Below, piece by piece: positions 12,480 through 32,804 of a stretch of 57,323 bases of DNA. Origin of the DNA: a virus (lineage: Duplodnaviria > Caudoviricetes); IMG/VR virus record IMGVR_UViG_3300025084_003544, positions 1 to 57,323 of that record; one strand, 5' to 3'. The position numbers and the translations under genes are program-made. The notes below the pieces were generated by a model. It searched no databases and was not told the origin of the DNA. It saw nothing but the letters and a program-made list of their open reading frames with translations. Numbering within the stretch: position 1 is the stretch's first letter; each line of letters starts with the position of its first letter.

Positions 12480-15400
12480 CTAAAAGTCTCTTGGACGTAA
12501 TCTGCTAACATAGCCTTCTATATTCGGGAACTTGTCTACCATATCTTGATAAACTATCAGCCCTACTATGTTTTCTTTTGCTCTTTCTACATATCTTCTT
12601 TTTCTTCTATTGTTCAGATCACTCCAATTTTTATTTCTAGAATTTAGATCTGCTCGAATAATCTTTTTAAACTCTCTTAAGACTGCCAATTTAGCATCAT
12701 TGTAATTAAAAGTACTTTCCTGTTGTTCTGCCAACTCTGCAGCCAAGTAAGATTGCCCAGCATTTTCGGATATCTCAATTTGAGATGTCTGAACCAGTGT
12801 GCCTATCTCCAAATCAGATGCATCAAATCCAACAGGGTTTGTAATCCCTGTACCTGAGTATCCACCTTCAGGTGCTATAGAGGCTGCACCTTGAAGTGCT
12901 TGTGGCTTTTTAAGTTCAACATCTACGCTTAATTTGACATTCTCGACTAATGAGAAATAATCGTACGGCCAGTTATAACCAACTGTGGAGTTTATCTTAT
13001 TTGATTTACCTATATCGCTGTTCATCTTTTCATCGTAAGAGAAGTTACCTCTTTGCTTGACTTTGAATATTCTCCAACGTACCTTCTTCAAGATACTCAT
13101 ATTCGGGCTAACATCTTTCAACGAGCCTAGCATTCCCTCAGGAGATAGAACATGTGATATTGATTGCTGCTCTTCTTCTACCTTCTTAGTCTCTTCTGTA
13201 ACAACTCCTTGCCACAACCCATTAAGATCGGTTCTTTCCAAGTTCTTAGTAAACTCGAAAATATACATGGGTACTGGCTGGACATCGTAGTTGATAAAGT
13301 CTAAGTGAGGTGGAAAGACATATTCTTTCATTTTTTCCATCTGTCTCAATACTTCTGGATCTTGAGAAGTCCCGTCAGTCAATTTGAGATTCAGATATTC
13401 TGGTATACCGTCCTTGTTAGAGATATATGGCACAGCAACTACTGCTTCTCTGATCACTCTAGACTTAGCAGTCACGCCCATCTTAACAGGCTCTTGTTCA
13501 AACCCAACCAACTTAGCAAGAGATTTGATCTGCTGCTGAGAATCGTCATGTAAGAACTGTCCCCATCTGACGGTAGAAGGGTTTGCAGTTATGTTTTTGT
13601 CTGATTGAGGGGCATGTTGAACTAAAGTTTTAAAATAGTCTCTAGAGCGCTGTACTGTGTCTGAAGAGGCAGTTCCTGCACCAGCATTGTATCTAATTGC
13701 TCCACGAACAAACATTGGCTCTGGGAAATCATACGATGAAGTGTCACTAGATACCAAAGAAGATACTGCAGGACTATCTGGAATCAATCTGAACGTCTTT
13801 CTTCTTACTTTTGAACTTTTAAAAGTATTGCTATTTGCTTTTGATACATTGATTGCTCTATTGATCTTTGCCGCTTCTTGTGTCAGACTAGAGGGAGTAG
13901 AGACAGAAGAGATTGTTCTGCTACCTATCAAGTCTCCAAGTGATGCGCGAGAAGCATCAGTCATATTAACCTTCGAAAGATTACCAATTGTTATTTCATT
14001 ATTATTTTTCTGCAAGATATCATTGAGATAACTTGGCGCTAGTACTACACCGGTAGAAGTTTTCACACAATCAACTTCATCTGCATCAGCAAATCTAGTA
14101 GACTGTTCTGTATATACTTTCCCAATTGAAAAGTCTGACAATGCATCTTCGAACTGCCCTTTGGAAAAAGTTCCAAAATCATACTCAAGTGAAGAATAAT
14201 TCTTAGGAACAATCAGCAATGGAGCATAAGAGTTTCCTTGATCGTAGTGATAGTAAGACGCTGCCCAGTGTCCTTTGAACGGAGAACTAGAAGAAGCGTT
14301 GTTTGCGCTACTAGCAGTTCCATCAACTTTCACAGCAAATACTGTCGATGCAGATGTAAAGTCAGAATTAGTTGTTAGAATTTCTTTTGTGTAACTTCCC
14401 GTATCTCTGAATACGTCAAACAGTTTAAAGTTGTCAGCGACTGATGCTGTACTGTCCAAGGTGACTCCAAATATATTTTGCAAGTCTACATATCTTAACT
14501 CTGTGTCAATAATCATTCCGGAGTCTGGATTGATTACTTGTATCGAGCCTCCTTCTACTGCGAATTCATCATCGCCAACCAATCTTCTTCTCAGTTCTTG
14601 TCTCGCGAAGTATGGATACATAGTATCTCTAGGATTGGTGTTATACGCTGCGTCCAGCCCTGCGCCGTCGCAAGAAGATATCTCAGGCTTGACTACAGTG
14701 TATTTTGGATTAGGAATTGTTAGTCTAGTGCCAGACTTTTCATAGCCGTCTGGTACATCAATCATTTGCATGAAGATACCTTTATCAGCCTCTTTTGGGA
14801 ACTCTCCGTATTGATGCCACATACCAATTGGATTCAGTACTCCACTTAATTGATGAACTGAAGATAAGGACGAATGAATCGAACTTAAAGTATCTGGCTC
14901 CTGACGAGTACCGGACAAACTTAGTTGACTGGTGTATATATCATCAGAGGTTACGCCAGATTCAAATTCTGCATTGTATTCTCTGTTTAAATATTTGGAG
15001 AAGTCTAATATTGGAGTCTCGAATTTAGACTCAATAACCCAAGAATTACCTTGGTTATCTATGTTAGCCTGCTTGAATAAGTTGAACGATGCGTCAACTT
15101 GCATTGCATTTTCGTTGATGGTAAACCCTTGCGGCCCAAATGTCCCTCTATCTCCAAAAGATCCGGATTCATGATTGAGTTCGTATCTCAAGAAATCGAC
15201 AGTTGTGTTCTGCAAGATGTCGTTTAATGTATGCTTTCCTGCTTTTTGCGGAGTGAAGGTGTATATAGCCCATGCTTCTCCGTCATAATAAGGAGGAGTG
15301 AATGGCGCATTATAACCATTAGTGGAATCATACATCATATATGTTGTATTGTTGTTTTCTCCGGTAGTAATTGTATCACCAACAACACTGACAAACTCTA

Positions 15401-18400
15401 CAGCAACACCGCCAGCACAAGGTGGGCCGAAGGCGTTTGGCTGAGAATACATTGTTATTGTCTCCACTTCAGCATATGAATTTATCTGAGGGCGTGGATA
15501 GTTGACTTTCTGTACATCGTATTCTAGAGCAGATCCAGTTAATCCCTGATATTCGCTCAAGAAATAATTGGTTCCACTAGGAGGACGATTATAATACTTA
15601 TCATATGCACCAGAAACGTCAGACGAATTGTTGATAACATCGGCTGCACCACTGAATTCAATATAAGGATGTTCTTTTCTAGATTTATATACTCTGAAGA
15701 TGGAGCGATATGTCGGTAACATTCCAGCATGATTTGCCACAACAATACCAAAGTCCGGATCAGTTTCTGGCTTGGATACAATTCTAGAAGATTTACCTTC
15801 TTGCAAAAAGAATTCCATTACCTCTGAAAAGAAATTGCTAGACATTAATTTGTAGTTTGAATCAGATGCTTCACCAATCTTTGCCTTAAGGTTGAAAGAA
15901 GAACTCGGATGAGGGTTCATGTCAACAATATACTCTTTTGACATAAAAGACTCAGGTGATAGCAAAGTCTCAAACGGTAATCTACTATCAAATAATTCAT
16001 TACTGATCATATGGTTAGTTCCACCATATGGATCTTTAAGGCTTGCTGTAGCCATCTTTGAGGTAACGATAGGGTAATCTACTGCCATACCAGACTTAAT
16101 GGTGTTATAAAGCAATCCCGGAGACATAACAGCATCAAAAACTGGACGTGCTTGAGCAAGCACATTGTTGTCTGGGAATTCTATATCTGTGTCACTTGGG
16201 TTCGCTTCTTGTGCTGAGATTCCTTTACCATATGATCCGGCGAATGCTTCACACATCTGCACAGTTCTAGACTGAGGGTAGAAACCTTCGTACGGTAAGA
16301 AACTTTTGATTGCGTCGCAAGTCAAAGTCAAAGTAAATGGAACCAATCCCAAATCACCAGTATTGTCTTCAATAAAGTTTTCTACATCTCTGATGTTTGT
16401 GCTAGTAGAGTATTCTCTTAAAAATTCTGATGAATTTCCTCTTTGATTCTTAGCAACAGTGATGCCGTCGTCCAGTGATGCACCAGTGATCTCAAGCCAA
16501 TAATTTTGCGCAAAATAAGACTTTTCATCATTTCCGTCTTGAATGATGCCCTCAATATGAGAACTTATTCTATATTCTGGAACTAGCGAGAAGTGCTTGT
16601 TTTTACCTCTGATTCTTTCATACCAATCATTGTAGTTGTTATCCATTGGCGTAAGTCCTGATAAATCAGGAGTTGTCCATCGTGAAGTATTATCAAACAT
16701 ACCATCTGTACTATGTCCTAAAGAGCGAGTGAGCGCAAAATGGTTAGATCTGAGTTTATAACCTTCGTGAATTAATCCTAAATTAGATTTTGCCGTAGGA
16801 TTGCGCATAGAGCCGGGAGACTGTAGAGTGTGAGGATAAGCGTATCTTGGCTGTGGAATCACTTCACCAAATTTAACTCCTCTGAATACTCCGTTAATTC
16901 CGCCAGACAGTCCGACTAATTCATCAAAAGAGTTGCCAGTTTCAGTAATAGATATATTTTTCGCCGTTCCAGTAACCGATGAGGTTAATTCAAATGAACC
17001 AGTATTTGATGCCACAGTAAAGGTTGCAGACATGTCCGTATTGGCTTCTACAGCAGCCGTGAGCGCATTAAAGAAGTTATTATCAGTTACACCACTTGCA
17101 TTGATCTGCAATGACGTAGGAGACGAATTATGGACGATTGTGAATATCGTGTCATCAATCGTGATTGTATCACCTGATGTAGCACCTGACTCATCAGTTC
17201 CGCCCGATGTGTTGTTAGTTATTGTGAATCCGATTCCATCACTACCATTGTACACACTGTACAGATCATTGTTGAACAATGCTCCAGTGACAGAAGAAGT
17301 GATACTAAGCGTTGCGACATTACTACTAGATGAGATCGATATAGTGTCAAATAATGTATGATCCTTGATAGATTGTGATAAATCATTCCAAAATTTAGTG
17401 CTTTTCTCGGCGTCAGTTCCTGTATATCCGGATACGTCAATATATTTGTTGGCAGTACTGTCAGTCTCATCTCCATTAAGATCCGCTCTGAAGTATATAA
17501 ACTCTCCTAAGGCATCGTCGTCGTAATCGGTATGGAATCTAATATAGTCCAAATCGCCTATACCAATTGGCGATGTTCCACCTGCGGCACCTGCCAAGTT
17601 CTGGAATGTGGCTCTAGAACCATTTGTATTCTGAGAGAATGCTACGTTCTTTGCCGTACCAGTGACAGAAGAAGTCAAACTAAATCTGTGATATCCAGTT
17701 CCTAAGTTGGTAATTGCAATCGTATCAAAGTCTGTGTCAGTTTTAATCGAGTGTGACAGTGCATTATGGAAGTTGGCTGTAGATCCAGTACCTAGTCCGC
17801 TGCTAATATCGATAGAAAAAGTTTGCCCATCAATTGTTATAGTATCGCCATTTTCTGCACCAGTCTCATCTGTCCCTGCAGTACCTGCATCAACTATTGC
17901 GAATGTATCGCCAGTTACACTAATATTAGGATCTTCTGAAGAGCCAGTTGATACTGATGTGATTGTGAAAGTTCTAGGGCTGTCAGAGCCTGTTACTGCG
18001 CTATAACCTGTTTGTACATTAACTTTAGTTCTAAGACTTTCCCAGAATTCAGCATCAGTCACTCCAGATGCCTGTACCTGACTTGCAGATGATGTCGATG
18101 TGTGAGTGATCGTAAACGTTGTACCATCTATTTCTATTGTGTCTCCCAAATCTGCACCAGATGAATCACTTCCAGTCGCAAACGCATTGTCAATTTTGAC
18201 AAATGTTCCGCCACTTGTTCCACCGTTACCAGATGCACCACCGTTGCCTGCGGCTCCAGTAACATAGTTTGTAACAGTAAAAGTCCTAGGATTGTCAACA
18301 CCTTGTGCCACAGCGAACCCTTCTGCTTCAAGTGCAGTTTCAATTGTATTCCAGAAATCTGTATTTGAGGCTCTTGTCGAGTCAACATAAATTGTCGTAA

Positions 18401-21400
18401 ATCCACTTACTGCAACAGATGCCGAATAATTGAGCCCACCAGTGTTGGAGTTGTCCTTATCAATCGTAACCCTATAGCCATTAGCGGCGCCAGAATCTGC
18501 ATAGAAATTAATATAATGTCCGTCAATGGCTCCGGTTTCACTAGTTCCATTTTGAGCAGTTTGTGTAATATCAAAAGAAGCATCTGCAGATGTTATAGGC
18601 TCGTCTGCATTGTTTTGATCTGAGCCTGTGACTTTCGAAGTCAATGTGAATGTTGCAACATTGCCGACATTAGTTCTAGAGACATTGAAAGAACTAGTTC
18701 CTTCGATTTGTGATTCTAAGTTACTCCACACATATTCATCTGTTCTATCGGTGATGTCGATTGTTCTAGAAGGTGAACTTGTGGTAGTTGAAAGGGTATA
18801 AGTTTCTGTTCCAATAGATATGGAATGTCCACTAACAGATCCGCTGATATTTGTACCGCCAATAATATTCCCATTAGAAGTGAATTGTCCATTTCCTGTT
18901 AGGGTTCTGTTATCCGCAGTACCCACTGTGTTGGCAGTGACAGTAAATGTTCTACTATTTCCAGTTCCAGCAGAGGTTACTGTATAATTTGTACCGGGAG
19001 AAGTCGCTTCAATTGATGAAATAATGTTATTAATTATATTAGTCTGGGACTGATCTCTATCAACATTAGGATATGTATTATCTGTTGCTGCCTGAACAAC
19101 TGTAGTTCCACCGATTTGTAGCCTATTACTTCCTCCAGTCGAAGTTCCAAACCCAAAAGCATTGGTACCGTCAGTATCTGTCTCATTCGAAAAAGAATCT
19201 CCTACCTTAGATATGTCAAAATTATATAATCCAGCAGAATTTTTTGTAATTGTGAAGTCTGAATAATCATCACAATTATTCGTATCATCATTAACAGTAT
19301 AACTAACTGTAAATCCAGATCCCATTTCTTGTGTTAATGCTGTGCTTAAATTACTCCAGAAAGTTGCTGAAGACACACCATATGCGTCAATTCTCCTAGT
19401 GTTCCCATCGTCTCCAAAAGAGCCAGAGTCGATTTCGAATTGTTTTGTTGCAGAGTCAACAGTTAGCCTAAAGAAATCGCCTTCTTTTACCCCACATTCT
19501 GCAGAATATACAGAGAAATCTTCATGCGAAGGAGCAGATTCTCCGGCAGTAGTTATATTTTCGTTATCCCAAGATCCAGAAGTAATCACGCCGTCAGAAG
19601 AAAATGCATCTTCTTTGACAGTAAATACTATCTTTGCTTCTGGTTCTGCGCCACTAGAGTCTACTGTGTAGGCTATATCGTAATTGTCGCCTACCTTACC
19701 ACTATCGGCTGCAGCAATCGTTCCAGTAATCGCATTCCAAAATTGGCTATTATTTCCTTCACTGATGGTGTATGTACTTTGCCATGTTTGCTCGCTAGAA
19801 GGCAGGGCTGGTAATGCAATATGGGACGCATTTGTCAATGCATTCGTCCCACCAGTAGCAATATCAATCTCAAATGTCAGATTTTCAAAAGTTCTAGTAC
19901 TAGAGTCATAATAAGGGATCTCAAATCTTTGAGCATCAGAGACTCCTATTTGTTCTGTCCCACCAGTGTTGGAAATCCCTGATATGTGATTTCCTTCGTC
20001 ATCTTCTCTTATGAAATATGTATTACCGTCTCCAGTAGTATTTGAAATTAAAGTGAATGTTCCATTAGTTCTTGTGGCAGTAACGTCTAGACTTACAGAG
20101 TTGTTTATGGCTTCAAGAACCTTATCCCACAATTCAGCATCCGTATCGGTATCGGTATCACCGTATACAGTAATGTTCACCGGGTTGTGGTTGTGACTTG
20201 GAGATGTTGCATCACTCGCAAATATACTAAATTGAAAATTAATTTGTACATAATTATTAGTATCAGAAAGACTTCCAGCCTTATCATATGCACCTGAAGA
20301 ATCTCTTCTTCTGATATATATTTTTGTTGCTTCGAGTGAACTTAGTATTCCAGAAGGAGCGACATATCCTGAGAATTGCACAGCATCTGAGAAAGATGAT
20401 CCATCTTGTGTAAAAGATGGTGTGTTGGTTGCTTCTTGCCCTACAGGTGTAATAATTGTGAAATCTGCTCGTGCGCCTGAATCTGTTGACACTCTTGTAA
20501 CAGATTCGTAATTTGAGTCTGCTTCAATCTGAGTGTCCATGTGATCCCAAAAGTCACCAGCAGATGCCGTATTGGTAGTCCATACGCTTCCTCCATAGAT
20601 TTTTCCTTCAAAAATAATACCGTATGTAAGTTTAATAACATCGGTTACTCCGGCAGCAGAAATTAAAGTTAAATCATTTTGATTCACTGTGTTGTTATTC
20701 GATGTGATTCCAGTTGGAACTTCGGAAAGACTAGACAAAGTATTTTCATTTGAAACTTGAGTAGTTAAGTCGGTATCTAAAGAAGGCAATTCAGAACTAG
20801 TCCCCCCTTCGAACAACCACCAGTCATTACAATTAATAAATTTAGGATGAGTAATGAGTTCACGGTATCTTCCATAATTATAAATCTCCAAAATATCGTC
20901 TGAGGTTAGTTTATCGCTCCATATAGAAATTTGAGCGATAGCACCTATAAATTCATAATTTGTGCTAGTGTTTGGGTAGTCCGCGATGAAAATAGAGTTT
21001 ATTTCTTCACAAACACCAGTACCTGAACCTGTTGATGTTGGTGTGGCAGTAATCTCTACGCCATCAATATAAAGCACTGGCTGAGTCGTAATTGAGCCTC
21101 TATCTATGACTATAGCAACAAATTGATATCTCTCTGTGCTTAAAACATTAGAAAAAGTATACGCCTTGTTATTTGAAGAGCCATTCTGTTCTAACTGCAC
21201 AATAATGTCATCATAATTTTGGTATATATCTAGGCTCTTCGTAGAGGGGGTTGTATCACTAGATTGCTGAAAAAAGACTGCTATCTGTTTTCTTCCACTA
21301 GTGTTAGACTCTGCCCTAAGCCATGCGCAAAAAGTCATGTCTGTTGATGTATCGTTGAACCCAGAATAGTTCGTATTGTAAAGATCCACCCTCTGTAGTG

Positions 21401-24400
21401 ATGTGGATGCCCATCTCCACGCTTGGGATTTGGATGTCTCATAGAGATTAGTGGATGGTGAACTTCCAATTGTAAATACGTTACCTTCATCAATAGGACT
21501 AACATGCCGAATTTCAAATATGTCACCGGTTTGAAGTTCAACTTGATCATTAGATTTTATTTCATTAACAGTTGGTGTTTCTGAGAATGTAGATTTTGCT
21601 ATTTCGACTTGAGAGAATGTAGAGTAATATGTACCGTCTACGACTTGACTTATCAGACTAACGTCAAAATCATAGCCAGTGTTTGTACTTCTAACTTGCA
21701 GACGACTGTTATCATAAGTTACTGTAAAGTTTGAACCTAGTGCAGTAGAAAGTTTCGATTCCCATGCTTCAATAAATTCACTCAGTGTTCTTAAGTTTGT
21801 TTGATTGAATGTATCATCTGATGCGTTATCGAAAGAATCAAAAGAAATATGTGCAGTTGTGATATTACTGTCTAATGCATTATTGTTTGAGTTGGGCGCA
21901 ACATCATTAACATTGCTAATAGTGTCTAGAGCGTTATTTCCAAACGTGTAATAAGAAACAAGCCCTTCTGCAGTACTATTCCCTGATGATGTGAAATTGG
22001 CATGATCAAACCACTTACCGCTATTATAATGCTCAGCAGACGTTGGAACGCCTTCTCCGGAGAGATCGACGTCATAAATTGCCAAATCTGCAATCTTGAG
22101 ACTAAAGTCTGAATCCGGATCACCAACATAGATATAACTAGCGCATGCATTTACGTTATCTCCGCTGCTTACCGTGCCCGATTCGGTGGTGACTCCAGTT
22201 ATACTAGATCCATCGATCCACAAGTTCCAACTGTCATTGTAAGAATCATTAAAAGTTAACTTAAATGATCGGAAGCCGCCACTAGAATAACTAAGAGTGA
22301 ATTTGGTTTCTCTATAATCAGTAGTACTGTCATTAAAATATCTTCTACAGACAAGTTTGTGCGTCGCGGAGATTCCACTTCCAGTTCTCTCATATAATAT
22401 TTCAATTGACTTGTCGGAAAACGTGCTGCGTGTTAATTTAACAATATCATATGTATCATTTACAGTAGGATCTTCACCTGCACCACCTGTGTCAATGTCC
22501 ATGTGAAAAAATATTGCAACACCGTTTCCTGCCGTAAAGCCAGAAAAAGTAGTATGCCTCATGTATCCGCTATTTCCCATATCTGCAAATTTTCTTTCTT
22601 TATAAGTCTTGATCCATTTATTTGTAGAATCATCAGTCCTAGAGGTATCATCATTTTGTGTTTTAAAGTTAATCCCAGCAATTGTTATGCCCATTGCGTC
22701 CCTGTTAGTGGCGGCATTATCATCTACGCTATTAAAAGTTGTGACTACTCCTGCTCTGTCCCCGTATCTCTTTATAGATTCTAAAGTAAAACCACCAGAT
22801 GAACCGGTTCCGCTGTTGTACGCCCCATCTAAAGTAAATGTCCCAGTTGTTGCCGTTGGAGACTCATGGATTCCTTTGAGAGTTACTGATGCTGATGCTC
22901 TAACCTCTGGAATGTTTGAACCAGAAACTCTAAATGTAGCAGTCGGATGTGTTGCTGCTGTATATTGTCTTGTGTCAGAAACTGTAAATGTATTCGTGGC
23001 AGTTGTTCCAACATAATGTGCTCCACTTACTTCGAAAGATGCTGTACTACTTGTTCCTAAAACTGTTCTTTCGTCTGCGGTGAATCGGAATGACGAACTT
23101 ACCGGCGGAGTAAACGTCTCTAACACAGTAAACTCGCCGGTTGCGGCAGTCCCTTGTACGTTTGCTCCGGTAATTTCAAATGCTCCAGAGGCTGCGATAC
23201 CTGTTGGTTGCATACCTTGAACTGTGAAAGAGCCAGATGCAAGTGAGCCAAACCTAGTAGCGCCTTTTAACTTAAAAGAGCCTGTCGCAACAGAGCCGCT
23301 TTCTAACAATTGAAACTCACTTAAGCCATTATGGAAGTGATGATCTTGGCTCTGAAGGACACCGGGTGCTCCTGCGGAGTTTGATGCTGCAGACTGTGCA
23401 TTTGAACTAGTAAAGTTTGTTCTAGAATCCATGTTCCAGATTGATTGAGACGGTATAACATTGGTTAAATACCCGTCATTCTTAAGGATTTGAACTTGCT
23501 TGTTCAGGCTACCTTCTTTAAAAAGAGATGCAGTGACGTTAGTTTTACGACGCCCAACTTCATCTAGTCTATGGTATGAGCCAGTTTCACTAGTATCAGT
23601 ATTATACAGTTCGTTCTCACCATCAGTCCAAAACTTGGACACAAAGTAATGCCTATGCCTAGTACTATATTTTGTGTGCTTGACATATCTTGGGAATATA
23701 ATTTGTTTAATATTTTTCTTAAGAATTTCTACATCGTCAGTGTTCTTTGAATAATACCCATATAATGAATCATAGAGAGTTTCGTTCTTTTGCATGTCAG
23801 AGTCAAATCTCAATTTCATACTATCAAAATGATACTTCATGTTGACATAAGGGTACTTGAATGTAAATTCAGATTCCTTAAATTGAACATTTGCTGTGTT
23901 TGGGATATTTTCTGTTACTCTAGATTCTTCTACGCTTTCTGAGTTTAGATTATATCCGTAAGATTTCTTGAGACGGTTATTTGCATTTGTATCATTGTTA
24001 CGAATCTGTTCCCAAGTTGGATATCCGTAAGACGTTACTCCATCAATTCTTTGGTTGATCACGCTTTGGCTCAAAACCGTATTCTGGTTATGTTCGTGAG
24101 GGAATCTTGAGGTATTCCCACTAGGCTCTGAGAGCCCTGATAAGATATGTCCAGACATCGATGAGGTTGCAGCAGACGCTGAATGTGATTGCTTTACCCA
24201 CTGGTATTGATAGTCAGATTGTGGTATCTGATGTTGTACCCAATAATTATCATTGTCTTTAGCCTGTTCCGATGCATCCCATTTTGGGTTTCTATTCACT
24301 TTGTGGAATGCAGGATTGTCTGCTCCTAATACCGAGTCTATACCAAATTGTGCAGAGTGCCTTGTTAAGTGAGTCAACAATCCATAGCGATTACCATGAA

Positions 24401-27400
24401 TGTCGAAGAGGCGTATGGTTCCAGCCTCTCCAGATCCCAACCCTCTTACTTGTAGATTGCGGAATGGAAGTGCGTTGTATGCAGACTTTTCTTTACCGTA
24501 CATATCTAAAAATACTTCAGACATCGTCTCAAACCCACCGGGGGCAGAAAATCTGTTTGCAATGACATGCTTGCTGTCACCTGTTACAGAGTTCTCTGTT
24601 GTGCTCTTGACTCCTCCCAAGTAAAGACTTGAAGAGTTGAAGTTGGATGCTAAGTTCCCATTTCCACCAACGCCTCTAGATACCAAACTTGCTTCTAAAT
24701 TAGTTTCTGGTAATCTAGAATTAATCGTGTTGTGCAAATTTGATTCAGCAATATCAATGAACCTAGTCTTGTTTGTTGATCTTCCAAAAGTATGTACGAA
24801 TTGGTATGTTTTTTGGTAGTTTCCTACTTGCGAACCAGAAGTTTGAATATTCTTGATGTTCAGAGGGCGTTTGGCTCTCTCATCACGATAATAGCGTGCT
24901 TTTGCCTGATCGATCCTAAAGTGCGGTGCTTCTGCTTGATTTGAGTACGGATATGGGTAATCGGCGCCGGCGACTCCAATTGAGCCACTAGCATTTTCAA
25001 TATTATTTAATAAGATTTTATAGCCTTCACCACGATTTGATTCAGAATCTGAACCTTTGTTTAAGGGAGCGTGTCTAGATTGATGCCCACCAACCCATCT
25101 TTCTGTAAAGGGAGATTGCATTGGAATCTCATTTGTCAAATCAGTCGTGTCGGAATGTACGTTAGTTATGTCGATAGAGCCTCCATCTGCCCCTAAGGTA
25201 CCACTGACATCACCAGTGTATCCTGTTGAAACTGATGAAGACATGATATTGAATGGCATTACCATACCACCCTTGAACAAACCATCGTGTCCCCCTGATA
25301 GTTCGTGATGAAATCCTTGAAATCCGTCAAGTGCACTGAAGGCTCTTTTGATTTTCTCAGTTACTGGACGCTCATCTGTACAATCTTTAAGAGAAAAGAA
25401 CATATCGTTGTTTGTAATTACATATCGTAAAGGGAATGCTCCAAATTCTCCATATTTGGCAGGAGATTCAGCAACCTCTTTGGTAGCACTCCAAATATAA
25501 TCTCTTTTCTTATTATCTTCATAGTTTGTCCCACCATGGATTGCTCTTGCCCTGTCAACGGCAAAATGTTGTGCCGTTGTATATGAACGATTTAGGACTG
25601 AGTTTCTTGCTTGAAAAACCTTTACTCTGGAATTGTTAGAGCCGGATGTCGAGCCAGATAATGGCGAGCGATCTCTCTCTGCTCTTTCGAGCCACCAGAA
25701 ACAGTTTTCATTCTCAGGAGTCCCTCCAACAGGTGCATGCCCTTGTTTCCATGGGTACAGGTGCCTGTTGATGGTGTTCATGCCACCTTCTAATGTCGGA
25801 GTTTTAAACTCTATTGTGGGAAACTTATGTGTGTATTTATCTCTAGAGAATACATAATTCTCAATCACATTATTAATACCGTCAGAATGAGCCAAGGATG
25901 CAGGCACAAGAGCCACCAACATCTCACCCAGTGAATCATCTAGCCACTTATAATAATCAATGTATTTGTCCAAATCAGGCTCGTTAGACACTCTCTCGAA
26001 GAAGAGTTGTCTTAAATTTCTGAGATCTTTGTACTCTTCTCTATACTTATCTACTGGGCGTCCGATTAAGTTGTTAAAATCTTTAACCGAAGACATGAAG
26101 CGTATCATCTCTTCAGATACGGTTTGTGCCATTGATTTCTCAAAAGCAATATAAAAGTCTTGCGGTAAAGTCTCTTTTGTGAATTGGATATCGTCTTGTT
26201 GGCGAATCTCGATCATATCATCGCCTTGCAATATTTCAGGGTAAGTTGATCTTGCGGCGTTGATATATTCCACATCAATAACTTTTTCATCATTAGATAG
26301 AAAGAAGTCTCCTCTACCATGATAAAACTTTCTCTTCACATCTTCAAACGCTTGTACATATCTTTGCTCGCCAGAGCCACTAGTGACATCTAGGGAAATG
26401 AATTGTCCGTTTGAATCAGAATTAGATAATGTTTTAAAGTCCCAATTTAACAATAAAGTATCAATCTCTGGGATCTTGATATCATTAACATCGTCTTCCA
26501 TCAAATAGGCAGAACGCATTGGGGATTTAGCACCAATGTTACTACTATCATATGAATGATGCAGTAAGGTTTCGTTATCTAGATAGTTCATCCAGTATCT
26601 GACAAAGCCAATCTTATGATCAGAACTTTCTTGTACAGAACCAGTAAAGTTTGTTCTCTTGGCTCCGGCATATATCCGTTTTGAAGAATTCAAAAAGTTA
26701 TGCGCATTTGCCTCTGTAACAGAAGAACTCAATTCAAAAGAATTGATTGTATAATTTCCTTCAGTATTGTACCCCACAAAATCAATTATATAATCTGCAT
26801 TTAATGAAGAACTAGCCACAAAGTCTGTTGTTGGAAATTTCTCATTACGTATACGGAAAGAGAATAGCCATTCATTATTGAGGTACATATCATCATATAA
26901 AGATGAAGAAAGGTGTACACCTAGGACTGACGATGATAGATGAAACCTAACCCTTTTAGATTCTACTCTATCTCTCTCAGAATACATTTGAATCTCTGAG
27001 TAGTCTGTTCCCGGAATTGTATAATCACTCCCGTCAGAAGCATCTGCTTGGTGCATGCCCAAGATTACAGATTTTGTAAATGGAGTATTGTATCCATATG
27101 CAGAATTCCATTCTAATTTATTGGGAAGTATTACTTGAGTCTCTACTGTAATCGGTATGTATTTTTCAAACTCAGCGCCAGAGCCAGATATGAAACTAAC
27201 CCCGTTTGAGCCTGATGCATACTGATATACAGTACCATTAAACCTGTCTGGATGGTTAAAATCAACAAACTTTTCTTTAGTTGCTCGAATATTGTAACGA
27301 TCTTTTACTTCAAAATCAACATTATCGCCATAAAAATTAATTTTAACGACATCTTCATCAATCCCAAAAGCATGCAAGACATTTCTAAATGCCTTATTCG

Positions 27401-29156
27401 TTCCTTTCTCTTTGTAAATATTGATCAAAGATGAGTAAACATTCTGATATATCTGATTCTTGACGTCATGAATCTTCATTTCGTAATTTTCATCTTCACT
27501 ACGTGTTGCCAATGCTTCGATCACACTAGCGTCTGCGAATAATTCTGGTGCTACAAATCCCGCATTTGTCAAAAGTCTGTCGGCAAATGGTAGAGGTTTT
27601 ACTCCACCTTCAGTATTTGTATTACCGTTCTTATCGTTTATTTTAGTTTGAAAATGTGCATATACATCTTTGAGGCTGTTAAGATCCTGAATGTGCAGAT
27701 ACAGATTATCATAATAACTAGCCATAATGTGCGTAAGGATATTGACATTACCTTCTTCTTTGTCTTCGTCTAGAATCCATCCCGGAACTGACTTAATAAG
27801 AGATGCATTGTTATTGATATCATGCATACTACCAGACGCTTTTAGTGCGTTCAATGTAGAGATATATTGAGGATGTGACGAATAGATAGTAGGATCTTTG
27901 AATTCTTTCGCTGATGCGCCTGCAAGTACAATAGCCGACTCTTCTGATCTAGCACCAGATTGATACCCAACCCATGCTCCATTAGAAACACGTCCTGAAT
28001 AATCTAACACTGTTGAGTCAATGCTTGCAGTTTGTGTGATCCCTTCATTAAATTTATAGTATACTCCCAAGTTAGTATTCGCTTCGTCTGTATTTGTACC
28101 ACCACCAATATTAGTCCAGTAGTAGCGTCCAACTTCTTTAGAATTTCTTTCAGTCTTCCAGTATCTGAACTCGTCTAGCGAGCCAGAAAATTTACCAGCA
28201 CCCTCTGTAACTGTCGGAGAACCTGATGGGGCAGTGCGTAGCGCACCAATATAAGAAATAAGAGAACCGGTTACATTATCGATAGCAGCAGAACTTAGCG
28301 TTTGTGCTTGATTGAAGTTTCCATTAATATATAAATTAGCAGAAATGTCACTGCCACTATTTTTAAGGCTCAATGCAACATGAGTCCAGTCTACTATAGA
28401 GCCAGTTGTTAAATTTTGCCCAATACTTTGGTTTTGTACACCAGAAGTACCACTTAGTGCGGTAAACAAGAAGGGAGAACCAGCAGAAGCGCCAGTAAGT
28501 TCCAGTCGAAGTCTACCGTATTGTGCCGAACTGGATGCTTCGCCATTCCACAAGTCGAATAGTACCTCTTTCTCTGTTTTTGATGTATCGAAAGCAGGCT
28601 TTTTTACCCACATCTCAAGAGTTACACCGTCGTTTAAGTTAAATTTGAGGTTTGACTCTCTAGATTTACTGTTGTCAAGTATATTGGCATCACCATATTG
28701 CTTCTGTAGCCCTATCAAATCGGACTTATTTGGGCCGCCAAATGTCTTAATATATGTATTTGTTGTCGATTTTCCGTAACCGTCAATAATTGAACCATTT
28801 AAAGTACCCCAACTTGGGTAACTGAGACTTACGTGTCCATTAAATCTAGGATATTTATGCTCGAACAAATACATGTCGATGAATGTCGAATCAAAAATCC
28901 AATCATATTTTTCTTTTTCAGAGCCATCATATGGATATGTATTTCGAATTCTTTTGAACCCATCATCATAATATCTTTCTGCCGAGCCAAAGAAGGCAAA
29001 GTTCTTTGGATCACTATAGTCAACGTTAGGCATGAATCTTATCTTATCCTTATTGAAGGACTCAATATACTCTTGAGATTCTACCTCGTTAGCCATATCT
29101 TCCAGACTAGAAGATTTAATTGTTTTTGTTGAATTGAATAAGTCTTTAAGTTTCAT
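12480..29156 (-). CDS. 5558-aa giant virion protein: gp7/P2 gpI-like baseplate wedge core with LamG domains and an inserted repeat fibre
   Basis: Lies two genes downstream of the gp6-like gene. IYKEKGTNKAFRNVLHAFG (KGT at 27399-27407) matches the gp7/gpI wedge motif. LamG/ConA-like signatures include TLEMWVK...WTHVAL...LYING...FSGSLDEFRYW and TFCAWLR...FVAIV...LYIDG...FIGAIAQISIW. The central region is repetitive. Confidence 0.8.
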   Translation of the reverse strand: MKLKDLFNSTKTIKSSSLEDMANEVESQEYIESFNKDKIRFMPNVDYSDPKNFAFFGSAERYYDDGFKRIRNTYPYDGSEKEKYDWIFDSTFIDMYLFEHKYPRFNGHVSLSYPSWGTLNGSIIDGYGKSTTNTYIKTFGGPNKSDLIGLQKQYGDANILDNSKSRESNLKFNLNDGVTLEMWVKKPAFDTSKTEKEVLFDLWNGEASSSAQYGRLRLELTGASAGSPFLFTALSGTSGVQNQSIGQNLTTGSIVDWTHVALSLKNSGSDISANLYINGNFNQAQTLSSAAIDNVTGSLISYIGALRTAPSGSPTVTEGAGKFSGSLDEFRYWKTERNSKEVGRYYWTNIGGGTNTDEANTNLGVYYKFNEGITQTASIDSTVLDYSGRVSNGAWVGYQSGARSEESAIVLAGASAKEFKDPTIYSSHPQYISTLNALKASGSMHDINNNASLIKSVPGWILDEDKEEGNVNILTHIMASYYDNLYLHIQDLNSLKDVYAHFQTKINDKNGNTNTEGGVKPLPFADRLLTNAGFVAPELFADASVIEALATRSEDENYEMKIHDVKNQIYQNVYSSLINIYKEKGTNKAFRNVLHAFGIDEDVVKINFYGDNVDFEVKDRYNIRATKEKFVDFNHPDRFNGTVYQYASGSNGVSFISGSGAEFEKYIPITVETQVILPNKLEWNSAYGYNTPFTKSVILGMHQADASDGSDYTIPGTDYSEIQMYSERDRVESKRVRFHLSSSVLGVHLSSSLYDDMYLNNEWLFSFRIRNEKFPTTDFVASSSLNADYIIDFVGYNTEGNYTINSFELSSSVTEANAHNFLNSSKRIYAGAKRTNFTGSVQESSDHKIGFVRYWMNYLDNETLLHHSYDSSNIGAKSPMRSAYLMEDDVNDIKIPEIDTLLLNWDFKTLSNSDSNGQFISLDVTSGSGEQRYVQAFEDVKRKFYHGRGDFFLSNDEKVIDVEYINAARSTYPEILQGDDMIEIRQQDDIQFTKETLPQDFYIAFEKSMAQTVSEEMIRFMSSVKDFNNLIGRPVDKYREEYKDLRNLRQLFFERVSNEPDLDKYIDYYKWLDDSLGEMLVALVPASLAHSDGINNVIENYVFSRDKYTHKFPTIEFKTPTLEGGMNTINRHLYPWKQGHAPVGGTPENENCFWWLERAERDRSPLSGSTSGSNNSRVKVFQARNSVLNRSYTTAQHFAVDRARAIHGGTNYEDNKKRDYIWSATKEVAESPAKYGEFGAFPLRYVITNNDMFFSLKDCTDERPVTEKIKRAFSALDGFQGFHHELSGGHDGLFKGGMVMPFNIMSSSVSTGYTGDVSGTLGADGGSIDITNVHSDTTDLTNEIPMQSPFTERWVGGHQSRHAPLNKGSDSESNRGEGYKILLNNIENASGSIGVAGADYPYPYSNQAEAPHFRIDQAKARYYRDERAKRPLNIKNIQTSGSQVGNYQKTYQFVHTFGRSTNKTRFIDIAESNLHNTINSRLPETNLEASLVSRGVGGNGNLASNFNSSSLYLGGVKSTTENSVTGDSKHVIANRFSAPGGFETMSEVFLDMYGKEKSAYNALPFRNLQVRGLGSGEAGTIRLFDIHGNRYGLLTHLTRHSAQFGIDSVLGADNPAFHKVNRNPKWDASEQAKDNDNYWVQHQIPQSDYQYQWVKQSHSASAATSSMSGHILSGLSEPSGNTSRFPHEHNQNTVLSQSVINQRIDGVTSYGYPTWEQIRNNDTNANNRLKKSYGYNLNSESVEESRVTENIPNTANVQFKESEFTFKYPYVNMKYHFDSMKLRFDSDMQKNETLYDSLYGYYSKNTDDVEILKKNIKQIIFPRYVKHTKYSTRHRHYFVSKFWTDGENELYNTDTSETGSYHRLDEVGRRKTNVTASLFKEGSLNKQVQILKNDGYLTNVIPSQSIWNMDSRTNFTSSNAQSAASNSAGAPGVLQSQDHHFHNGLSEFQLLESGSVATGSFKLKGATRFGSLASGSFTVQGMQPTGIAASGAFEITGANVQGTAATGEFTVLETFTPPVSSSFRFTADERTVLGTSSTASFEVSGAHYVGTTATNTFTVSDTRQYTAATHPTATFRVSGSNIPEVRASASVTLKGIHESPTATTGTFTLDGAYNSGTGSSGGFTLESIKRYGDRAGVVTTFNSVDDNAATNRDAMGITIAGINFKTQNDDTSRTDDSTNKWIKTYKERKFADMGNSGYMRHTTFSGFTAGNGVAIFFHMDIDTGGAGEDPTVNDTYDIVKLTRSTFSDKSIEILYERTGSGISATHKLVCRRYFNDSTTDYRETKFTLSYSSGGFRSFKLTFNDSYNDSWNLWIDGSSITGVTTESGTVSSGDNVNACASYIYVGDPDSDFSLKIADLAIYDVDLSGEGVPTSAEHYNSGKWFDHANFTSSGNSTAEGLVSYYTFGNNALDTISNVNDVAPNSNNNALDSNITTAHISFDSFDNASDDTFNQTNLRTLSEFIEAWESKLSTALGSNFTVTYDNSRLQVRSTNTGYDFDVSLISQVVDGTYYSTFSQVEIAKSTFSETPTVNEIKSNDQVELQTGDIFEIRHVSPIDEGNVFTIGSSPSTNLYETSKSQAWRWASTSLQRVDLYNTNYSGFNDTSTDMTFCAWLRAESNTSGRKQIAVFFQQSSDTTPSTKSLDIYQNYDDIIVQLEQNGSSNNKAYTFSNVLSTERYQFVAIVIDRGSITTQPVLYIDGVEITATPTSTGSGTGVCEEINSIFIADYPNTSTNYEFIGAIAQISIWSDKLTSDDILEIYNYGRYRELITHPKFINCNDWWLFEGGTSSELPSLDTDLTTQVSNENTLSSLSEVPTGITSNNNTVNQNDLTLISAAGVTDVIKLTYGIIFEGKIYGGSVWTTNTASAGDFWDHMDTQIEADSNYESVTRVSTDSGARADFTIITPVGQEATNTPSFTQDGSSFSDAVQFSGYVAPSGILSSLEATKIYIRRRDSSGAYDKAGSLSDTNNYVQINFQFSIFASDATSPSHNHNPVNITVYGDTDTDTDAELWDKVLEAINNSVSLDVTATRTNGTFTLISNTTGDGNTYFIREDDEGNHISGISNTGGTEQIGVSDAQRFEIPYYDSSTRTFENLTFEIDIATGGTNALTNASHIALPALPSSEQTWQSTYTISEGNNSQFWNAITGTIAAADSGKVGDNYDIAYTVDSSGAEPEAKIVFTVKEDAFSSDGVITSGSWDNENITTAGESAPSHEDFSVYSAECGVKEGDFFRLTVDSATKQFEIDSGSFGDDGNTRRIDAYGVSSATFWSNLSTALTQEMGSGFTVSYTVNDDTNNCDDYSDFTITKNSAGLYNFDISKVGDSFSNETDTDGTNAFGFGTSTGGSNRLQIGGTTVVQAATDNTYPNVDRDQSQTNIINNIISSIEATSPGTNYTVTSAGTGNSRTFTVTANTVGTADNRTLTGNGQFTSNGNIIGGTNISGSVSGHSISIGTETYTLSTTTSSPSRTIDITDRTDEYVWSNLESQIEGTSSFNVSRTNVGNVATFTLTSKVTGSDQNNADEPITSADASFDITQTAQNGTSETGAIDGHYINFYADSGAANGYRVTIDKDNSNTGGLNYSASVAVSGFTTIYVDSTRASNTDFWNTIETALEAEGFAVAQGVDNPRTFTVTNYVTGAAGNGGASGNGGTSGGTFVKIDNAFATGSDSSGADLGDTIEIDGTTFTITHTSTSSASQVQASGVTDAEFWESLRTKVNVQTGYSAVTGSDSPRTFTITSVSTGSSEDPNISVTGDTFAIVDAGTAGTDETGAENGDTITIDGQTFSIDISSGLGTGSTANFHNALSHSIKTDTDFDTIAITNLGTGYHRFSLTSSVTGTAKNVAFSQNTNGSRATFQNLAGAAGGTSPIGIGDLDYIRFHTDYDDDALGEFIYFRADLNGDETDSTANKYIDVSGYTGTDAEKSTKFWNDLSQSIKDHTLFDTISISSSSNVATLSITSSVTGALFNNDLYSVYNGSDGIGFTITNNTSGGTDESGATSGDTITIDDTIFTIVHNSSPTSLQINASGVTDNNFFNALTAAVEANTDMSATFTVASNTGSFELTSSVTGTAKNISITETGNSFDELVGLSGGINGVFRGVKFGEVIPQPRYAYPHTLQSPGSMRNPTAKSNLGLIHEGYKLRSNHFALTRSLGHSTDGMFDNTSRWTTPDLSGLTPMDNNYNDWYERIRGKNKHFSLVPEYRISSHIEGIIQDGNDEKSYFAQNYWLEITGASLDDGITVAKNQRGNSSEFLREYSTSTNIRDVENFIEDNTGDLGLVPFTLTLTCDAIKSFLPYEGFYPQSRTVQMCEAFAGSYGKGISAQEANPSDTDIEFPDNNVLAQARPVFDAVMSPGLLYNTIKSGMAVDYPIVTSKMATASLKDPYGGTNHMISNELFDSRLPFETLLSPESFMSKEYIVDMNPHPSSSFNLKAKIGEASDSNYKLMSSNFFSEVMEFFLQEGKSSRIVSKPETDPDFGIVVANHAGMLPTYRSIFRVYKSRKEHPYIEFSGAADVINNSSDVSGAYDKYYNRPPSGTNYFLSEYQGLTGSALEYDVQKVNYPRPQINSYAEVETITMYSQPNAFGPPCAGGVAVEFVSVVGDTITTGENNNTTYMMYDSTNGYNAPFTPPYYDGEAWAIYTFTPQKAGKHTLNDILQNTTVDFLRYELNHESGSFGDRGTFGPQGFTINENAMQVDASFNLFKQANIDNQGNSWVIESKFETPILDFSKYLNREYNAEFESGVTSDDIYTSQLSLSGTRQEPDTLSSIHSSLSSVHQLSGVLNPIGMWHQYGEFPKEADKGIFMQMIDVPDGYEKSGTRLTIPNPKYTVVKPEISSCDGAGLDAAYNTNPRDTMYPYFARQELRRRLVGDDEFAVEGGSIQVINPDSGMIIDTELRYVDLQNIFGVTLDSTASVADNFKLFDVFRDTGSYTKEILTTNSDFTSASTVFAVKVDGTASSANNASSSSPFKGHWAASYYHYDQGNSYAPLLIVPKNYSSLEYDFGTFSKGQFEDALSDFSIGKVYTEQSTRFADADEVDCVKTSTGVVLAPSYLNDILQKNNNEITIGNLSKVNMTDASRASLGDLIGSRTISSVSTPSSLTQEAAKINRAINVSKANSNTFKSSKVRRKTFRLIPDSPAVSSLVSSDTSSYDFPEPMFVRGAIRYNAGAGTASSDTVQRSRDYFKTLVQHAPQSDKNITANPSTVRWGQFLHDDSQQQIKSLAKLVGFEQEPVKMGVTAKSRVIREAVVAVPYISNKDGIPEYLNLKLTDGTSQDPEVLRQMEKMKEYVFPPHLDFINYDVQPVPMYIFEFTKNLERTDLNGLWQGVVTEETKKVEEEQQSISHVLSPEGMLGSLKDVSPNMSILKKVRWRIFKVKQRGNFSYDEKMNSDIGKSNKINSTVGYNWPYDYFSLVENVKLSVDVELKKPQALQGAASIAPEGGYSGTGITNPVGFDASDLEIGTLVQTSQIEISENAGQSYLAAELAEQQESTFNYNDAKLAVLREFKKIIRADLNSRNKNWSDLNNRRKRRYVERAKENIVGLIVYQDMVDKFPNIEGYVSRLRPRDF
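16880..22727 (-). repeat. Twelve divergent ~100-150 aa domain-body repeats in the giant protein, the first two interrupted by LamG domains
   Basis: Recurring G-D-x-I-x-I-x-G...F-W-x-x-L...F-T-(L/I/V)-T-S-x-x-T-G...F...G-(G)-T pattern. The helix motifs in order are EFIEAW, DFWDHM, ELWDKV, QFWNAI, TFWSNL, NIINNI, YVWSNL, DFWNTI, EFWESL, NFHNAL, KFWNDL, NFFNAL. Confidence 0.85.
22728..23303 (-). repeat. Twelve tandem ~16-aa beta-strand repeats, consensus G-x-x-A-(S/T)-G-x-F-x-(V/L/I)-x-G
   Basis: ATGSFKL, ASGSFTV, ASGAFEI, ATGEFTV, SSFRFTA, STASFEV, ATNTFTV, PTATFRV, ASASVTL, TTGTFTL, SSGGFTL, AGVVTTF; 192 codons in total. Confidence 0.85.
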
Positions 29157-30600
29157 ATTTCTCTACTCTAAATTTAAATATCTTGTTTACAGGTTTGTAA
29201 TCAGCGATAAAGTCGTCATAAAATGCCAACTTAACCCCATATGAATATCCGGGCTCAAGAATAGACATATCGAAATCGAAATAACTTCCTGAACCATCAA
29301 AAGATAACTCTGTGTACTTGACACTGCCTGTAGCGTGTTCAATAACTTTGTAGTTGTCAATGATTCTAAATATTTCATATGATCCTGATGTTGGAATATA
29401 CAATTGAGGCTCTGCAACTGTTCTTGTGTAAATAGTTGGACTCCAGCCTTTTAATCTTGTATATATTCTAAATCTTGCTGTTTCGTCACTTTCGTAAACT
29501 TTCTTTAAATTAGTAATAGAGACATAATAGTCGTTTGTTTTTGTAGTTGTCCCAGTGTATCTTACTTCTGGGTAGATTGTTCCTGTGTGGAACTGTGTGG
29601 AACCTGTATACCATACATCGTGTAAAGTTTCAGATGTTCCAGTGATAGACACAGATGCACTATAAATACCAGTTGAAACATATGATCCTGTAACTGTCAC
29701 TAGTGCTGTTCCAGATGGAGCCGATGCAGACGATTCATACAGTGCTACTGCCAAATCTCCTGTACCAACAGAAGGAATGTTCTTTAATCTTCCACCGATA
29801 TTATTGTAAATGTATAAAGTATTTAAATTATCTTCGGCAGGTGCCAATGAGGAACTGTAATAAAAGTTTGATCGATCATCTTTGACAGAAGAGTTCCATC
29901 TTGCTTCAATAGCAGGACGATTGAAATAATATTCGGAATCTCTTGCTGAAAACTTTTTAGTATAGTAACTGTTTGCATCTGATTCAAAACTCGATGAAAA
30001 CTTTAGAATAAATCCATAGTTGTTACCACTGTTCAGAGAATTATTAAGTACATCTTCTACATATTTCGTCACATCTACTTCAAAATCTTCAAGTCCGGTA
30101 TCAAATGTTTGTTCAAATGCGTAAGAGGTATTGTAATCACCTTCGGCTCCACCGGCACTCCAAGCGGCTGTTGTGGATGATGATAACCAGTTTGAGTGCC
30201 CAATATCAGTGAATTCATCTAAATCCATTCCGTAGCCTTCATCCCAGTCAACTGTCAATGGGTGTGCAATTAATTTAAAATTTCTTGGTACAGTATCAGG
30301 ATGTTCGACGTTGCTAAGTTTCATGAAAAATTTAACTGATCCTGAATTTGGTAATACTCCAGCATCTCTATCTTGTTTGATAGTCTTAATATCACTGTTA
30401 AGATCTGTTTCGTTCACTGGGAAATTGATAAGTATCCTTGCTTGCTCTACGGAAGATGACGTAACTTGCCCATACATCTTAAATATTTCTAGAGAATCTG
30501 CTAAACCTGTATTCGCACCAGTACTCCTCTTACTTAGTCCAGAATTAAATTGATTGGTAATCGTATTATCTGCGATTGCTGTATATCTTTTAATAGCCAT
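29146..30600 (-). CDS. Putative baseplate-associated virion protein
   Basis: 484 aa, between the gp6-like and giant gp7-like genes. The N-terminal ADNTI...NTG...LEI...RILINF pattern recalls DNRLRE-type beta domains; Ser/Thr/Gly-rich. Confidence 0.6.
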   Translation of the reverse strand: MAIKRYTAIADNTITNQFNSGLSKRSTGANTGLADSLEIFKMYGQVTSSSVEQARILINFPVNETDLNSDIKTIKQDRDAGVLPNSGSVKFFMKLSNVEHPDTVPRNFKLIAHPLTVDWDEGYGMDLDEFTDIGHSNWLSSSTTAAWSAGGAEGDYNTSYAFEQTFDTGLEDFEVDVTKYVEDVLNNSLNSGNNYGFILKFSSSFESDANSYYTKKFSARDSEYYFNRPAIEARWNSSVKDDRSNFYYSSSLAPAEDNLNTLYIYNNIGGRLKNIPSVGTGDLAVALYESSASAPSGTALVTVTGSYVSTGIYSASVSITGTSETLHDVWYTGSTQFHTGTIYPEVRYTGTTTKTNDYYVSITNLKKVYESDETARFRIYTRLKGWSPTIYTRTVAEPQLYIPTSGSYEIFRIIDNYKVIEHATGSVKYTELSFDGSGSYFDFDMSILEPGYSYGVKLAFYDDFIADYKPVNKIFKFRVEKYET

Positions 30601-32423: not shown

Positions 32424-32804
32424 TTATATGTTTACAACCAAAGCGCTAACTGCACCGGATCCGTTGACACTGAATTTCACAGTAACTAGTAGTCCGTTCG
32501 CAGTTATATTGTCATTATTTGATTCTGAATGAAATAAGACATCTTCGATTTTAATATACCCCATATATTGACTTACTTGTCTTTTTATCTTAGCCTTGAT
32601 TCTAGAATAAGTTGAAGAATCATTTTGCTCAAATAGATATCTTTTCATTCCCACGCCAAAGTTTGGATCCATAATCCTCTCTCCCGGACTGGTAAGAAGA
32701 ATCATCTTAAGATTTTGATTTATAACTGCCATGATAGTCTGGTTATTTTCATAGCCATTCGAGTCATTAATCAATAAAGGAAGTTTAGGTGAATAGTTGG
32801 ACAT
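32424..32804 (-). CDS. Baseplate wedge / sheath initiator (gp25/GpW-like)
   Basis: QNLKMILLTSPGERIMDPNFGVGMKRYLFE signature; sits directly upstream of the gp6-like gene. Confidence 0.93.
   Translation of the reverse strand: MSNYSPKLPLLINDSNGYENNQTIMAVINQNLKMILLTSPGERIMDPNFGVGMKRYLFEQNDSSTYSRIKAKIKRQVSQYMGYIKIEDVLFHSESNNDNITANGLLVTVKFSVNGSGAVSALVVNI

Follow-up and report, generated by a model that had tools for sequence, protein, structure and literature searches.

The question raised by the viral stretch IMGVR_UViG_3300025084_003544 (Duplodnaviria; Caudoviricetes; all 57,323 nucleotides of the IMG/VR record, here called the window) is how one giant protein accommodates two different repeat arrays that seem to match each other unit for unit. 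An earlier note, made from the sequence, had read the region 16880-23303 as 12 short strands followed by 12 larger bodies. It had also suggested that each strand pairs, in reverse order, with a body far along the same chain, so that the chain would run outward as a spine and return domain by domain. We followed up this suggestion by a computational analysis of the protein and its relatives. The analysis supports the repeats themselves, their matched counts, two strand-body pairs in reverse order, a similarity in fold and the use of several insertion sites. We propose that residues 1955-4092 of the protein constitute a self-contained inserted module folded back on itself through nested strand-body pairing, and we give this reading a probability of roughly 0.7.

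Two repeat arrays in one protein

The coordinates given for the repeat region in the earlier note were correct, and the whole region lies inside one open reading frame (ORF; 12480-29156, minus strand). Residue numbers in the giant protein follow from (29156-nt)/3+1; positions 23303-22728 correspond to residues 1952-2143, and position 16880 to residue 4093. The carrier and the parts of the module are as follows.

12480..29156, minus strand: giant ORF (P0001), the module carrier, 5558 amino acids (aa), downstream of gp25-like and gp6-like genes
22707..23294 (residues 1955-2150), minus strand: strand repeat array, 11 canonical units and one degenerate unit
20682..22706 (residues 2151-2825), minus strand: distal tip region, with weak body fragments and two ConA/LamG-like domains
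21957..22604 (residues about 2185-2400), minus strand: first LamG-like stretch, LamG-like by sequence pattern only
20892..21356 (residues 2601-2755), minus strand: second tip domain, Laminin_G_3/ConA-like (PF13385, E 7.2e-13)
16881..20681 (residues 2826-4092), minus strand: 11 bodies significant by an iterated hidden Markov model (HMM), independent E-values (i-Evalues) 1e-7 to 6e-26

Eleven 16-residue units built around the core A(S/T)GxFxV form the clear part of the outgoing array (residues 1955-2133; unit starts 1955 to 2117). A HMMER profile of this repeat was too weak for unit counting. Strands were therefore counted with an unsupervised 16-column position-specific scoring matrix (PSSM) and a chaining step, which still misses degenerate end units. 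Ten of the 11 units scored 12-31 bits, and the unit starting at 2051 scored 3 bits; for an earlier 12-column PSSM, the 99.9th percentile on shuffled sequence was 1.8 bits. Of the 12 tandem strands claimed earlier, 11 are clear by PSSM, and the 12th (about residues 2134-2150, the RYGDR...TTFNSV stretch) is degenerate and was recognised by eye only.

The returning bodies are about 100 residues long, and their consensus contains all of the motifs noticed originally, namely a GDxIxIxG start, an FWxxL helix and an FTLTS..TG strand. Eleven of the 12 claimed bodies are significant by HMM; the innermost one is weak, split and below significance. Its fragments lie around the first LamG-like domain at residues 2157-2179 (4.4 bits) and 2437-2518 (1.3 bits), both non-significant, and a third weak fragment (2537-2581, 6.0 bits), also non-significant, precedes the second LamG domain. 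The 12:12 match of the earlier note is thus firm for 11:11 and weak for the last pair. In addition, the body domain is rare: of 1.84 billion representatives, its profile matched only 72 proteins.

Numbers of strands and bodies in relatives

The carrier family is common in IMG/VR, where one scan found 69 distinct loci (L004-L072). Relatives of the carrier were gathered by a word-indexed protein search together with these loci. De-duplication retained 80 of 89 proteins, and L009 was excluded because a contig end cuts it, leaving 79. Bodies were counted automatically (HMM i-E < 1e-3, complementary halves merged), and strands by the PSSM chain.

Across the 79 non-redundant complete relatives, the number of strands and the number of bodies were strongly correlated (Pearson r = 0.986). 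No module was present in 43 of them (0 strands, 0 bodies), and 36 had at least one. For these 36 module-bearing relatives, the two counts were equal in 17, differed by at most 1 in 34 and by at most 2 in all 36. Among the 24 relatives with at least two modules, the counts were equal in 16, within 1 in 22 and within 2 in 24. The observed module numbers (N) were 1, 2, 3, 4, 5, 6, 7, 8, 9 and 11-12, and N varied inside each clade. P0072 and L044 are examples of compact 3:3 modules, of about 650 aa. The earlier expectation that strand and body counts would stay equal in homologues of varied length therefore held, over a range from 0 to 11-12.

The mismatches were mostly in one direction, as the chaining step overlooks degenerate strands next to the tip. 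When they were re-read by eye, the ratios of strands to bodies were 8:8 in L001, 6:6 in P0019, 2:2 in P0034, 3:3 in both P0056 and P0062, and 7:7 in L003. P0008 has 8 strands against 7 bodies plus one weak body, L033 is 5:5 or 5:6, and L013 has 3 strands versus 2 bodies plus a split tip body.

Furthermore, the single-module relatives show how strand and body are related. In these the strand starts exactly 16 residues ahead of the body start (L004, 1548/1564; L005, 1542/1558; L011, 1544/1560), which indicates that the basic unit is a strand and a body in one piece. In larger modules, the tip body directly adjoins the last strand.

Three other proteins are also of note. P0005 (3259 aa, N-terminally cut) has 12 HMM bodies, the extra one lying between the equivalents of window bodies 6 and 7; because of this extra body, more strands are predicted there than in the window protein, in a part that is missing from P0005. 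P0065 (5421 aa) has eight body matches, mostly spaced by about 250-370 residues with two pairs nearly adjacent, and most of its bodies may carry an inserted domain. P0061 (residues about 860-1400) is a distant relative that agrees by eye with the equal counts: four tandem bodies (974-1383) follow four short GSATV-type repeats, with no tip domain; the remainder of that protein is apparently unrelated to the phage carrier protein.

Insertion sites and mirrored conservation

The module interrupts the carrier at three or four distinct sites in 37 proteins. It lies after HHFHN in 10 of the 37, including the window protein, between VGGHQ and RFSAPGG in 18, and between HKxxRN and SDFQYxW in 3. The remaining proteins are ambiguous (4/37), have the insert upstream of VGGHQ (1/37) or are truncated (1/37). 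Since several carrier loops accept the insert, the two ends of the module must be adjacent. For a row of 7-12 tandem domains to have adjacent ends, something must run back along the row, and the strand array, with one 16-residue unit per body, is the only candidate for the returning element.

Conservation within the module is mirrored. Between the window protein and P0008, the conserved elements are strands 1-6 (9-13 of 16 residues identical) together with the last six bodies (scores 140-509); between P0012 and P0019, they are strands 1-3 together with the last three bodies. The variable part is a contiguous inner cassette. Mirrored conservation alone would follow from any central swap; the non-trivial point is that the exchanged parts keep the numbers of strands and bodies equal.

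Predicted fold of the bodies and pairing with the strands

Two adjacent bodies were folded alone with AlphaFold2 (AF2) and were also co-folded with four strands offered as a separate chain. The elements concerned are the following.

17556..18149 (residues 3670-3867), minus strand: bodies 9 and 10, folded alone and co-folded with strands
23103..23198 (residues 1987-2018), minus strand: strands 3 and 4, essentially the sole offered strands placed on the bodies

For the two bodies, 54 rows of paralogous and metagenomic copies were aligned as input; a three-body alignment (A3) was left out of folding because its depth was uneven. Bodies 9-10 alone (residues 3666-3871) gave a predicted local distance difference test score (pLDDT) of 86.9 and a predicted template modelling score (pTM) of 0.62. 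Each predicted body has three strands (b1-b3), a 15-residue helix and three further strands (b4-b6), and is followed by a short post-body strand and a GGTxxSGA linker. In this strand-less model, the conserved post-body segment (GxxFxxV...GGTxxSGA) is coil with a pLDDT of about 61.

For the co-fold, strands 2-5 (residues 1971-2034) were offered to bodies 9-10 in runs with three seeds, alongside three controls. The interface score ipSAE was 0.62, 0.70 and 0.70, and the best control gave 0.00; contact agreement between runs was at least 92%, and the partner pLDDT was 67-70. The interface is confined to partner residues 1984-2017, that is, strands 3 and 4, and its register is reversed: body 9 receives strand 4, and body 10 receives strand 3 (i + j = 13). 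The reverse-order pairing proposed earlier is thus seen in the co-fold for two pairs, 3/10 and 4/9. In the model, F2009 and V2011 of strand 4 touch the post-body strand 3751-3756 as well as I9, F39, W40, F65 and I80 of body 9, and F1993 of strand 3 touches F3851 after body 10. The post-body segment, coil in the two-body model, here forms part of the interface. In addition, i + j = 13 is the register in which, according to this model, no unit would be left unpaired at the base.

A parallel pairing, strand i with body i, was also considered. It was rejected, as the co-fold is reversed and the conserved outer strands accompany the conserved last bodies. AF2 modelling of a whole small module with its carrier flanks (P0034, 1073 aa, 13-row alignment) gave a pLDDT of 35 and a pTM of 0.29 and was uninformative.

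An exhaustive structure comparison with VIA placed the two-body model closest to sheath proteins, in line with the likeness pointed out in the earlier note. The best match was the sheath protein 8kee_A of cyanophage A-1(L) (Z 7.5, root-mean-square deviation 2.5, 80 aligned residues, 24% identity), followed by 9khy_a of Mu (Z 6.2) and several other sheath-bearing myophage tail or baseplate entries (Z 5.1-6.1). Each of these matches spans about residues 1-100 of the model, i.e., a whole body. VIA also gave FliD D2-D3 (Z 5.0-5.9; 5h5v_A, 5.9) and the flagellin FliC 4nx9_A (Z 5.1), and Foldseek against PDB gave FliD and FliC outer domains at E 0.16-0.5. In predicted fold, the bodies appear similar to the sheath outer insertion domain and to D2/D3 of FliD, both of which are known to be nested, and one family recurs among the matches.

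Proposed architecture and alternative explanations

We propose the following architecture. The chain would exit the carrier and run outward as N consecutive 16-residue strands (N = 12 here), turn at a distal tip carrying the two ConA/LamG-like domains, and return through N bodies, each of about 100 residues with six strands and one helix. Each outgoing strand would lie along the short strand that follows one body, and its Phe and Val would be buried in that body, where they meet the helix and strands 1, 5 and 6. Body N+1-k would be the partner of strand k, giving domain-in-domain nesting iterated N times, and every level of the nest would combine a body with a two-stranded tie that packs onto it, made up of the outgoing strand and the post-body strand. 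The inner strands, the tip and the inner bodies would form a contiguous cassette exchangeable as one piece. We infer that the module is an elongated rod, tens of nm long, whose length is set by N; about 60 nm, the figure given in the earlier note, would be an upper bound with the strands fully extended. Because of the LamG-type tip, the baseplate context and the variable N, the module likely serves the baseplate as a built-in fibre for adhesion or receptor binding, in which depth N would set the reach and the inner cassette the specificity.

Several points weigh against this proposal. The innermost strand-body pair of the window protein is without statistical support. The automated counts are unequal in 8 of the 24 multi-module proteins, and their reconciliation by eye involved judgement calls that could favour equality (degenerate end strands accepted, LamG-split bodies merged); L033 is possibly 5:6. 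Many of the N = 7 proteins are related, so there are fewer independent cases than rows. In AF2 two bodies fold confidently without the strands (pLDDT 86.9), and the strands may be dispensable for folding. The earlier note had taken complete folding of strand-less bodies as contrary to its idea; what we found in silico is partly of this kind, in that the bodies fold, although the segment after each of them remains unstructured. The co-fold covers 2 of the 12 pairs. Furthermore, four offered strands allow three adjacent pairs in two orientations, of which the middle pair is perhaps favoured geometrically, the three runs differ by seed alone, and the strand alignment had 6 rows. Custom alignments were used, so the tool's ipSAE calibration, in which 58 of 80 solved complexes but also 2 of 110 mismatched pairs attained the mark, applies only roughly. 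The co-fold result may also stem from the likeness of the bodies to solved sheath and FliD domains. Finally, all fold matches are middling: VIA Z values below 8 can reflect a common arrangement, according to the tool's own note, and Foldseek of the two-body model against PDB gave nothing at E <= 0.001 (best E 0.16).

Three other explanations should be weighed with these points. The same pairing might take place in trans, the strands of one copy lying on the bodies of a neighbour by donor-strand exchange or as a domain-swapped pair, to build a two-chain fibre. The co-fold is blind to cis versus trans as it used two separate chains, and baseplate proteins of the T4 type are present in multiple copies per baseplate. 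However, the strand lies immediately ahead of its body in the same chain in single-module relatives, and the last strand adjoins the tip body in larger modules. Moreover, a cis hairpin accounts for the several insertion sites without added assumptions. We consider pairing in trans unlikely, and the pairing is most probably made within a single chain. It is very improbable that the 16-residue array is independent of the bodies, forming a beta-solenoid, a beta-helix or a flexible linker beside bodies arranged as beads on a string, with equal counts due to coincidence or shared descent. The counts co-vary over 0-12 across several clades and three insertion sites, the co-fold reached 0.70 versus 0.00 in the controls with specific Phe-Phe contacts, and a linear insert of 7-12 domains would be unable to rejoin the carrier at the insertion site. 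Such an array would nevertheless agree with the confident AF2 bodies obtained without strands and with the 2 x 8 residue pattern with Gly, which resembles beta-helix repeats.

The nested pairing could also be real while the module forms a compact or zig-zag surface decoration of the baseplate or tail, stabilising or adhesive, which does not reach for a receptor. A related fold decorates sheath proteins, for which roles in stability or adhesion are proposed in PMC9230969. In Rhodobacter phage RcTitan, described below, two modules belong to a protein in the position of the major tail protein and one to a small protein, and the pTM of only 0.62 means that the geometry between two bodies is not fixed by the model. 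The 16-residue tie per body restricts their spacing, though it does not dictate it. On the other hand, the lectin-like domains sit at the point furthest from the carrier, and N differs widely between close relatives, as fibre length does. A compact decoration therefore seems improbable to us, and we retain the hairpin of nested strand-body pairs as the preferred reading.

Distal tip and genomic context

The two tip domains differ in how well they are recognised. The second one scored 49.4 bits against the Pfam cutoff of 27.6 for Laminin_G_3, and the first (residues about 2185-2400) had no Pfam match at E <= 1. The carrier has a further Laminin_G_3 domain near its N-terminus, outside the nested module. 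This domain and the two baseplate genes upstream of the carrier are located as follows.

28131-28646 (residues 171-342), minus strand: further Laminin_G_3 domain (E 8e-11)
30600..32411, minus strand: gp6-like baseplate wedge subunit (phrog_219, 2e-25; phrog_6, 3.5e-12)
32424..32804, minus strand: gp25-like baseplate wedge protein (PF04965, 1.4e-14; phrog_261)

The gene order is gp25-like, gp6-like, a 484-aa ORF and then the giant, which matches the position expected of a T4 gp7-type wedge protein. By synteny, the giant may be a baseplate wedge protein. The three thirds of the giant were searched against Pfam and PHROGs; no gp7 family was found, and the sole match was Laminin_G_3 at residues 171-342. 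Searches of carrier parts against PDB sequences (phmmer) gave nothing at E below 0.47, tblastn with the N-terminal third, the insert and an insert-free relative found no match among 50,697 cultured-phage records, and ESM Atlas gave no usable match. In addition, three proteins on other contigs (P0002-P0004) are 100% identical to the giant across the searched residues 1940-4100 in the protein search, which indicates that the long frame does not stem from an assembly error.

The window is phage DNA, with PhoH, primase, SbcD-like and exonuclease genes elsewhere in it. Two genes upstream of the baseplate genes there is an ORF of 2142 aa (32834-39262, minus strand) with no PHROG match at E <= 0.001.

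Comparison with known systems

Domain-in-domain nesting is already established for sheath proteins and flagellins. The nesting of sheath domains mentioned in the earlier note agrees with PMC3004832, in which T4 gp18 is described as domain-in-domain nested: domain I lies within II (88-97 plus 189-345), II within III and III within IV. According to PMC9230969, some sheath proteins have five or more domains and a 'returning part of the chain'. The module resembles sheath proteins in that they are the best structural matches of the body model. However, it differs in having one module type iterated 1-12 times, a regular array of 16-residue strands and a place in a giant of the baseplate region. With each third of the giant, Pfam and PHROGs gave no sheath family, and the conserved sheath core is absent. 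Similarly, flagellin and FliD (a D1-D2-D3-D2-D1 hairpin) share the out-and-back chain and the variable outer domains at the turn, whereas the giant is without the D0/D1 coiled-coil segments, its nesting is far deeper and its module is uniform. No flagellin family in Pfam matched the giant, and the likeness is limited to the fold of the outer domains.

A parallel in a cultured phage was found in Rhodobacter phage RcTitan (KR935213, L073). The two-body model had BFVD fold matches to two of its uncharacterised proteins, gp17 (E 2.5e-6) and gp13 (E 6.3e-4), for which the strands and bodies below were recognised by eye.

L073:10535-12748: RcTitan gp17, at the major-tail-protein position; two ATGTVTI/ASGTLTI-type strands, then two body-like repeats
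L073:8559-9128: RcTitan gp13, between capsid and head-to-tail joining genes; a single strand and a single body

RcTitan differs in being a cultured siphovirus with the modules at the protein N-terminus, a depth of 1-2 and no tip domain. Furthermore, its modules are only weakly similar in sequence (body HMM i-E about 1e-3).

Outside phages, the streptococcal antigen I/II adhesins offer another comparison. In these proteins the A-region helix is wrapped by the polyproline helix of the P-region, and the V domain lies at the tip. They are alike in their out-and-back single-chain stalk, their binding domain at the far end and the matched repeat numbers of the two arms. However, the arms are an alpha-helix and a polyproline II helix, and the protein is a wall-anchored adhesin of bacteria. 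Donor-strand complementation in chaperone-usher pili and TasA fibres is also comparable, as the sheet of a domain is completed or extended by a strand that does not belong to the main chain segment of that domain. In those fibres the next subunit donates the strand, which builds a polymer. In the giant, the donor is most likely the same chain, with the strand some 1700 residues upstream of its body in the modelled pairs.

Significance

In the open-access literature (supplements excluded), we found no nesting of one module up to twelve, no count-matched strand array, no lectin tip of this kind and no movable insert in a baseplate giant. A search of solved structures by sequence gave none with this architecture. 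The available part of PMC12619734, on another aquatic phage lineage, leaves such a protein unmentioned. We lean slightly towards regarding the module as an undescribed class of single-chain hairpin fibre, in which iterated nesting would make a receptor-reaching rod, the nesting depth (from 1 to 12 or more in the proteins found) would set its length, cassette swaps would change its specificity and selection would enforce the stoichiometry of strands and bodies.

If this is true, a single polypeptide placed within a loop of a second protein could make a long thin projection, with no need for trimerisation, unlike classical phage fibres, and simple genetic changes could tune both its length and its tip. 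The depth of nesting would be raised from the three to five levels described for sheath proteins (PMC3004832, PMC9230969) to twelve. RcTitan is a cultured phage in which the basic strand-body module could be studied, and the module would also lend itself, as a natural scaffold, to the design of rods with a set length. Furthermore, the finding would bear on how repeat proteins expand while two distant arrays are kept in step, and on host reach and recognition by uncultured marine myoviruses.

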